DNA of 64,000 nt from Nitrospinales bacterium (GTDB lineage Bacteria > Nitrospinota > Nitrospinia > Nitrospinales > VA-1): NCBI GenBank assembly GCA_965262115.1, contig OZ253496.1, positions 1,440,001 to 1,504,000 of the forward strand, written 5' to 3'. The translations under genes and the position numbers were made by a program. Shown in pieces: positions 22,431 to 23,673 of the stretch (its first letter is position 1; every line of letters begins with the position of its first letter). Under the pieces are notes generated by a model that saw only the letters and a list, made by a program, of their open reading frames with translations, was not told the origin of the DNA and made no database searches.

Positions 22431-22479
22431 TGATGTCCTCTTCATTTGTCTTCATGCCCCGAAGCAACTGTGTTAAATG

Positions 22480-23420
22480 TCAAGTGCTGGCAATGAGATT
22501 TTCATTCCAGAGTGTTTTTGTTTTGATCATGGTATTGATGATCGTTAATAACTTTCTCATGCATGCGGTAATGGCAACTTTAAAGGGTTTGCCCTTTTCG
22601 ATGAGGCGTGTGTAAAAGGTACGAATCACGGGATTATGCTGCATGGCAGTGACGGCGGCCATGTATAAAGCGGCACGCACATTGGCGCGACCGCCCCGGA
22701 TACACCGAACTTTCCGCTGTCCCGATTGAGGGGAGCGAGACCGATAAGGGCGGCGATTTGCTTCTGATTAAGAACTCCAAGTTCCGGAACCCCGGCCAAG
22801 AGGTTGACAGCCGGAACGGGACCGGCACCGGGAACACTTTGTATGATCTGGTCGTGCTCACGCCAGGCAGAACTGTTTTTGATGGTTCTGGAAAGGTCGC
22901 CATCGATTTTTCGCAAGCGTTTTTTAAGAGATTCGATATGCTCCTTAATGTCTTTACATATCCATTTTGGAGCTTGTTTTAGACGGGTTTTTTCTTTGGT
23001 CAGCATCTCGATCAACTGGCGACGGCGTGTCACTAGAGCTGAGAGTTCAAGAGATTCTTCGTCTTTGATTTTCCTGACCTCAGGACGTATGGCCTTGGCA
23101 AAATGGGCCAGCACAAGAGAATCAATGACATCGGTTTTTGCCAGTTTCCCGGTGGCTTTGGCAAAATCACGAACTTGCCGTGGGTTGACCACGGCTACTG
23201 GCAGTCGACCCGCAACCAGGGCCGAAGCCAACGGGATCTCTAAGCCGCCTGTGGCTTCCAAAACGATCAATGGAGGATTTAAGGCGGATAAACTCTCGAC
23301 CAAACCAGCAATCCCTTCTTCATTGTTAGCGGTTTGCCAGGTTTCTTGAGTCATGCTGTCAGCAACATCCAGATGGAGTTTAGAAATATCGATGCCAATA
23401 AAATGGGGTTTCTGATTCAT
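22480..23420 (-). pseudogene. IS110 recombinase, frameshifted near 22700
   Basis: GIDISK, LEATG, KTDVID, RDSG; C-terminus [12 protein letters not shown]...ACMRKL lies in another frame. Confidence 0.88.
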
Positions 23421-23424
23421 AATT

Positions 23425-23640
23425 TGGTCTCCCAGCCTTGCCGATGCGGGCTCAGTGGCCCAGGCAACTGTTCGGGTTAATCAAAACAGGACACAACGAT
23501 CTGCGCTTCGGGACGGGCTTAAAAGCCCAAGGGGTAAACGATCTATTGTGCCCTGAATCAAACCCTGTGAGCCTTGTGGAAAACACAAAACCGGCTTCCC
23601 ACAGGGCTCACAGGTACAACTACTACAAATTCCCCTTATG
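23425..23640 (-). ncRNA. Predicted IS110 bridge RNA (ends approximate)
   Basis: 5' stem-loop, then a target loop (TTACCCCT / CCCGAAG) and a donor loop (ACAGTTGC / CAAG) matching the element's own target and donor junctions. Confidence 0.8.
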
Positions 23641-23673
23641 AACAACATACAAGGGGTACTCGAAGGGTTCCCA

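Follow-up and report, generated by a model that had tools for sequence, protein, structure and literature searches.

A 40-base unit, cleanly inserted at hundreds of sites in genomes of marine Nitrospina-type bacteria (Nitrospinota), is real and mobile, and its last base co-varies with its base 16 by Watson-Crick rules, which is the central result of our analysis. The window, i.e. the whole stretch of DNA that was analysed, comprises 64,000 nucleotides (positions 1,440,001 to 1,504,000 of contig OZ253496.1) of a Nitrospinales bacterium and is held by the source genome G000, one contig of 2.68 Mb. Other G numbers refer to comparison genomes.

A nested stack and the exact ends of the unit

The locus is a nested stack in which an IS3 (22089-24567) holds the micro-element, which in turn holds an IS110. 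Its features are the following:

22089..24567, plus strand: IS3-family element with the micro-element between frameshift site and orfB
22154..22428, plus strand: IS3 orfA (HTH_Tnp_1), as far as the insertion point
22429..22461, minus strand: micro-element bases 9-41, with the hairpin 3' arm GGGGCA-T-GAA, a purine-rich spacer and the conserved end ATCACA
22462..23650, minus strand: IS110-family element in the hairpin, 1189 bp counting one copy of the CTT core
22626..23420, minus strand: IS110 recombinase ORF (DEDD_Tnp_IS110 and partial Transposase_20)
23490..23550, minus strand: predicted bridge-RNA target-binding loop, with a guide layout as in passages of PMC11208160
23651..23658, minus strand: micro-element bases 1-8 (TACCCCTT), the 5' arm with the CTT core, of which the IS110 made a second copy
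23674..24483, plus strand: IS3 orfB (rve)

Base 16 (T) of this micro-element (22429-23658) is complementary to its last base (A). The repeat/IS3/IS110 stack (window 21800-24600) is located at the GC-skew minimum (~21857), just upstream of dnaA, and thus probably lies in or beside oriC.

Taking out the IS110 left a 41-nt unit, as the original prediction had claimed. Removal of this unit restored the end of the IS3 orfA, as also proposed, but the empty IS3 reads ATC TTC TCG (F-S) and not ttt gcg. Among five IS3 relatives with a full junction, TTC TCG was found in four and TTC TCA in one; a sixth relative was cut off. The unit exists where it had been placed, with both ends shifted by 2 nt (22429-23658, not 22431..23660). 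Its true ends are TACCC and ATCAC followed by A, G or T, at a length of 39-41 nt. With these corrected ends the joined 7+7 flanks were found elsewhere in the genome for 48/161 copies vs 4/161 with the earlier ends, and by junction type for 26/109 vs 3/107; this test covered the 161 non-tandem copies of 205. The followers CAAA, CAAG and TAAC had been read as a recurring context. They are not a target motif, because the CA belongs to the element's own end, and CAAA and CAAG together account for only 29/205 copies. The CAAG context is an artefact of the misplaced boundary, so that the clue to an IS91-like mover falls away.

The absence of a target duplication was borne out, with duplications of 3 and 4 nt in 1 and 0 of 161 copies, respectively. 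A 1-nt flank match was somewhat frequent (70/161 copies, at sites that are not independent). Gene-less, with exact ends and without target duplication, the unit fits the tiny non-autonomous mobile element that had been proposed.

Related copies exist at all positions listed earlier (5173, 16228, the composite at 21946, 36449 and 61532), at refined coordinates, and a further copy at 21850 was missing from that list:

5173..5213, plus strand: 41-nt copy of T-A type, with a head-truncated copy directly after it at 5214-5243
16228..16267, plus strand: 40-nt copy within a CGTC-type inverted repeat
21850..21888, plus strand: 39-nt copy of A-T type (base 16 = A, last base = T)
21946..22004, minus strand: composite of a 41-nt copy (21955-21995) nested in the remains of an outer copy, within a CGTC-type repeat
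36449..36488, plus strand: 40-nt copy, found at the orthologous site of G013 too and absent there in G019
61534..61572, plus strand: 39-nt copy between convergent genes

At 21946 the composite is extra sequence relative to the sister repeat at ~59898-60028, which is empty, in agreement with the earlier observation. The copy at 61534-61572 was not found at the orthologous place in G013 or G019, where the intergenic DNA is wholly different, and clean empty alleles were not obtained at orthologous sites of relatives, these sites being too rearranged.

The window contains five exact GGGCATGAAG sites, and a genome-wide search showed copies far beyond chance. A profile search of G000 recovered 342 copies at E<0.01 and 406 at E<1, while the reversed genome gave 0 at either cut-off; exact heads numbered 191. 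Only 8/379 copies were located in ORFs of at least 200 aa, though such ORFs cover 69% of the genome. No replication-strand bias of the copies was found (200 vs 179). The head was present in 38/120 Nitrospinota genomes, namely in 20/22 genomes of the genus, 35/69 of the family and 2/21 of one other family, with 0 in the rest. Among the genome matches listed for the full pattern (at least 80), all were Nitrospinota. Two viral contigs carry the unit as well, and on a phage-like contig (L168:3001-3039) one copy overlaps the junction of two adjacent ORFs. G048, from another family, has four variant-tail copies (L171-L173; end CTTG or similar). All four occupy the same position in a CGTC-type repeat and probably arrived together with this host repeat.

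Hairpin anatomy, pairing of the ends and target sites

Bases are counted from 1 on the TACCC strand. In the hairpin, bases 3-6 pair with bases 10-13; the loop between them reads T-N-C (G-N-A on the opposite strand) in 377 of 394 unique copies. The closing pair among these 394 is C-G in 241, G-C in 83 and T-A in 36. A free spacer of 13-17 nt follows.

Base 16 and the last base were paired in 130/142 unique copies of the source genome (T-A 86, C-G 36, A-T 8) and in 77/84 unique copies of other genomes. This pair of positions had the second-highest mutual information, behind the closing pair only. In the pooled set 240/265 unique copies were paired, compared to a mean of 132 and a maximum of 154 in 2000 shuffles, although these counts overstate the number of independent events because the copies are related. 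In 93% there is also a pair between base 17 and the penultimate base. When partners were slid (base 16 with the last base but one, or the neighbours of base 16), 1-5% were paired, with the exception of base 16 and the last base but two, where a constant A gave 67%. Among near-identical copies that differ at base 16 and at no more than two other places, 130/162 pairs retain the pairing, and one spacer cluster contains all three pair types, which require only two compensatory changes. A later metagenome set, which omitted 39 head matches without a canonical tail, comprised 70/93 Watson-Crick pairs, 20 T.G and 3 other. In tandem pairs whose units differ at base 16, the last base fitted its own unit in 22/22 cases and the neighbour in 0/22.

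When the two ends are joined, an 8-bp stem forms on the G-N-A strand, with the junction 2 bp from the stem base, and for 6/6 frequent sequences that were folded this form was stabler than the linear one; such a stem is what a single-stranded circular or a fold-back intermediate would be predicted to have. Read from sequence, the covariation of the ends together with the own-unit match in tandems implies a putative single-stranded circular intermediate.

Indications of the strand that folds are divided. One strand is favoured by the G-N-A loop and by the invariant A2/C14, for which its counterpart bases would form G.T; the opposite one is favoured by the imperfect pairs (T.G 36 vs C.A 4 at base 16 and the last base; 17 vs 5 at the closing pair). 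Units of the T.G class are followed by C in 27/39 cases, often where they entered a host copy in inverted orientation, at the foot of its hairpin; an enrichment of GCATGC that could explain this class was not found. The +2 position also differed between pair types, T-A units preferring G (39 vs 18 C) and C-G units C (22 vs 10 G).

Insertion sites showed a loose bias. Across 128 site classes, derived from 488 copies, +2 was T in 2%, +3 was C or T in 75%, +5 was C in 59% (background 22%) and -2 was A or T in 76%. This corresponds to a target of approximately NWN^NSYNC on the TACCC strand, with no fixed tetra- or pentanucleotide. In 69 sites there was no fixed cut position relative to a target hairpin or stem, and the variable stem base did not co-vary with flank bases +5 to +8, so that an extended target pairing is unsupported. 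The units were inserted in CGTC-type repeats, CCCCTC-type repeats, other hairpins and the unit itself, with 76 of 299 copies in tandem and 37 nested. Tandem units were unlike in 27/28 pairs, which argues that arrays grow via separate insertions and not as concatemers. Tandem neighbours share the 5-nt loop block in 25/42 cases vs 12% expected. One array (G000:C1:814859-815055) consists of four identical 39-nt units and one different unit, nested in an outer copy.

The IS3 host and the IS110 in the hairpin

All 15 IS3 copies of G000 with a left junction carry the unit, seven of them without and eight with the IS110, and the inserts occur in three main variants. The original prediction had set uninterrupted IS3 copies already containing the segment against an independently mobile unit. 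Taken literally, such a constant association is what was found (15/15), but in relatives the IS3 is without the unit and its junction is uninterrupted, which indicates that the insertion preceded the spread of this IS3. The 41-nt insert puts orfB in the +1 frame in every copy, so that the usual -1 shift runs into a stop. In the orfA frame the insert reads CCC CGA AGG, which is a possible +1 slip site. The window copy encodes an orfB of 269 aa vs 287 aa in 2/13 copies that were read end to end; 11/13 are shortened. No other full IS3 transposase was found in G000. The IS3 flanks are shuffled among copies, but left and right flanks that agree over 3 nt point to real transposition. In contigs of four runs, which drop rare forms, none skipped the unit in IS3, and a second set of run contigs gave only joints between sister repeats.

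That the unit serves as landing pad of the IS110 was confirmed by 26/26 right ends and 25/26 left ends abutting the hairpin, where the ends meet the micro-element at the CTT core. The segment is not a constant part of the IS110 ends: it varies where it adjoins the IS110, and it is found in hundreds of copies that have no IS110. The left end folds with an internal loop bearing TACCCCTT and CCCGAAG, arranged like the bridge-RNA guides described in passages of PMC11208160; in the window these predicted guides (23529-23536 and 23506-23512, respectively) match the two halves of the micro-element hairpin. This IS110 shares the DEDD recombinase, the CT core and the left-end predicted guides fitting the target with bridge-RNA IS110 elements. 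In the parts of PMC11208160 and bioRxiv 10.64898/2026.03.19.712850 that describe IS621/ISPpu10-type elements, which target REP hairpins, a CT-containing core and left-end guides matching a repeated hairpin are likewise found; the difference is that the target here is the micro-element and not a classical REP. The recombinase ORF has 264 aa in the window vs 316 aa in sister copies.

The IS110 left end occurs in 7/70 family genomes and is missing from the element-rich G007, G004, G018 and G022, which marks the IS110 as a passenger. Homologs in G076 and G069 (L365, L366, L369) carry other predicted guides and abut AATCCCCCTT instead of TACCCCTT, an apparent case of natural retargeting between two repeat families. 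At G000:C1:2144621-2144784 an IS110 left end is inserted in the bridge-RNA region of another IS110 copy.

Candidate movers and comparison with known systems

Searches for HUH genes of the Y1 and Y2 families and for RT, recombinase, DUF559 and GIY-YIG genes found no mover gene that tracks with the unit. An HUH enzyme, as originally proposed, is still the best chemical guess, but no Y1 or Y2 over cut-off was found in G000 or in its element-rich, near-complete relatives G013 (320 heads, one contig) and G007 (92 heads). Y1 was present in the element-free G009 and in 16/69 family relatives. The expected Y1/Y2 transposase flanked by the motif did not appear, as 0/25 Y1-hit loci were flanked on both sides by the unit, and IS200-like loci have ends other than those of the unit. 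A sub-threshold Y1 match in G000 was on inspection not a Y1. With a local Y1 profile there were 0 matches in 127 metagenome loci and one match with E 0.98 among the G000 ORFs. Y2 gave one fragment in 23 genomes, control genomes being silent, and an HUH motif scan yielded no candidate specific to the unit. Tyrosine recombinases were rejected, with only two in G013, the same number as in the element-free G009. Multi-copy ORFs were negative or unspecific as movers, and genes between or beside copies in G000, and in 37 loci of low-copy genomes and two viral contigs inspected by eye, included no specific mover. Heads without a tail (58) were followed outward, and in no case did an obvious element with a transposase begin there. 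G000 gave a single RT match, to a broken fragment in a region of the contig that is low in GC and eukaryote-like. The first 100 kb (G000:C1:1-100000), with a GC of 0.37-0.43 from 10 to 100 kb, simple repeats and this RT fragment, are likely eukaryotic DNA joined in.

With a confidence slightly short of even, we favour a gene-less unit with exact ends that moves in the form of a single-stranded circle, for which a strand-transfer enzyme, likely of HUH type and supplied from elsewhere, does the cutting and rejoining. In single-stranded DNA the tail would dock at the hairpin foot, by which both flanks would come to lie together. The donor would then be resealed by two strand transfers that set free a minicircle, and in the reverse reaction the circle would be opened at the same bond and joined into a loosely specified site. 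Re-entry would mostly be into other intergenic hairpin repeats, into own copies or right before a resident copy, giving arrays of unlike units. Once abundant, the hairpin would have become the target of an IS110 with matching predicted bridge-RNA guides, and one copy would have entered an IS3 that afterwards spread with the copy inside. HUH chemistry fits best because HUH enzymes, according to passages of PMC8266576, join single strands at sites picked by DNA-DNA pairing beside a small hairpin. Against this model stand the lack of an enzyme in the families searched, the fact that no circle was seen among the contigs, the conflicting indications of the folding strand and the T.G class, whose tie to a following C is not accounted for. 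Furthermore, RAYT and IS608 are described in the same passages as cutting within or after the guide-paired bases (in REP/RAYT the C|T rule of a cut between them), whereas both paired bases stay in the unit here.

Somewhat unlikely in our estimate, host replication or repair might copy the unit in without the help of a dedicated transposase. After a nick, the 3' end would change over to another copy as template and then return, with a fold-back setting the ends and base 16 templating the last base. Such templating would give the tight match of base 16 and last base automatically, no mover gene would have to track with the unit, and the loop block shared by tandem neighbours suggests homology-guided events, although slippage between adjacent heads can homogenise loops too. 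However, the ends are exact to a single base at more than 100 unrelated site classes with no microhomology, which is unusual for template switching, and the family is confined to part of the Nitrospinota although host enzymes are universal.

We consider it unlikely that a repeat-associated nuclease of GIY-YIG type and a host ligase move the unit by cutting out the folded form, sealing the nicked stem to a circle and inserting it at nicks in repeats. Small GIY-YIG genes flanked by CGTC-type repeats, which are frequent targets of the unit, were found in G000 and in six element-rich genomes (G013, G019, G007, G018, G022 and G010), but the same query gave no match in the unit-bearing G004, G012 and G003 and did match in the element-free G024. 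We know of no joining activity of GIY-YIG-type nucleases, and two base pairs on one side are a poor ligase substrate. DUF559, rejected as a candidate mover, is missing from G007 and G004, which also weakens a nuclease route. In G000 the small GIY-YIG genes (L032, L034) with their CGTC-type repeats, and likewise stand-alone DUF559 genes (L038-L044) flanked by inverted CCCCTC-type hairpins, are REPtron-like in arrangement.

An ordinary REP/REPIN, moved by a RAYT or IS200-type TnpA since lost or visiting on mobile DNA, appears quite improbable. The short hairpin with a conserved 3-nt loop resembles the S. maltophilia REP in passages of PMC8266576, the unit is intergenic, and Y1 occurs among family relatives. 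REP/REPIN-RAYT systems further share with it hundreds of copies, targeting by IS110 and bases beside the stem that are complementary to the cut site (passages of PMC3116915, PMC3733652 and PMC8266576). Yet the unit has no GTAG/CGTC tag, the bases beside its stem being TTC followed by A or G on one strand; it is a single hairpin plus tail with exact ends instead of an inverted doublet; and it differs in cut geometry and in having no Y1 gene that it flanks.

A shade less probable still would be an RNA intermediate, in which the unit is transcribed, circularised or reverse-spliced, and copied back by an RT. A C(UNCG)G tetraloop is possible for the commonest head, on the strand that the wobble pairs favour as well, and the lack of target duplication would agree with this route; on the other hand, the G-C and T-A closing variants (119/394) cannot make UNCG, the sole RT match of G000 is broken, and Rfam gave no match at family threshold. 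Very improbable is the IS110 recombinase as mover, which is abundant and sits in the hairpin, given that its CTT core lies within the loop and not at the unit ends, that targets share no core, that its left end is absent from element-rich genomes and that distant homologs with other guides abut another repeat.

Compared with known systems, the unit lacks defining features of REP/RAYT, PATE, IS91, MITE and integron cassettes. It resembles IS200/IS605 and PATE in the lack of target duplication, asymmetric ends, a likely single-stranded circle and a one-sided cut-site bias, but has one hairpin instead of two, no fixed 4-5-nt target and no TnpA in the richest complete genomes. PATE are non-autonomous IS200/IS605 derivatives that share two subterminal hairpins with the autonomous IS. 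Insertion beside CAAG/GAAC as in IS91/ISCR is not seen, and neither are the terminal inverted repeats and target duplication of a MITE. In the circular form of an integron cassette, its own first bases complete the terminal hairpin, and arrays of unlike units grow head to tail. Such arrays recur here, and so would the completed hairpin in the proposed circle, but the 19-nt hairpin is far under the size of an attC site with its L/R boxes, there is no cargo, and G013 has no extra integrase. The nearest kind is the SDR class of Nostoc: for SDR1-8 of the Nostocaceae, citing passages (PMC4390886, PMC5861425, PMC2884548, PMC3116915) describe very small, gene-less, dispersed units with precise insertion, as given for SDR5, and name no enzyme. 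The present unit is alike in these respects, but is 39-41 nt long vs ~20 nt, lacks a fixed target such as HIP1 and belongs to another phylum. Passages of PMC3733652 likewise describe CGTC repeats without a known dedicated transposase. Literature searches returned no description of this micro-element family.

For SDR-type repeats there is as yet no explanation of how units with no room for a gene achieve precise insertion without duplication or fixed target. The end-pairing rule predicts the exact junction, the bond that is cut and the compensatory pair. Scarless insertion of 40 nt, with a spacer that can be chosen freely, would make such an enzyme attractive as a tool. The locus displays three levels of parasitism, with an IS3, a micro-element in it, and an IS110 with matching guides in the micro-element. 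Scarless excision might be the reason why this IS3 continued to transpose although all its copies are out of frame. It is possible, though doubtful, that the unit belongs to a so far unrecognised class of minimal DNA transposons, in which the junction of a 40-nt single-stranded circle completes its one hairpin. The enzyme would then be none of the Y1, Y2, RT, DDE or tyrosine-recombinase types and perhaps a conserved host protein. If this were true, orphan micro-elements of SDR-like kind in other phyla could be accounted for by the same chemistry.
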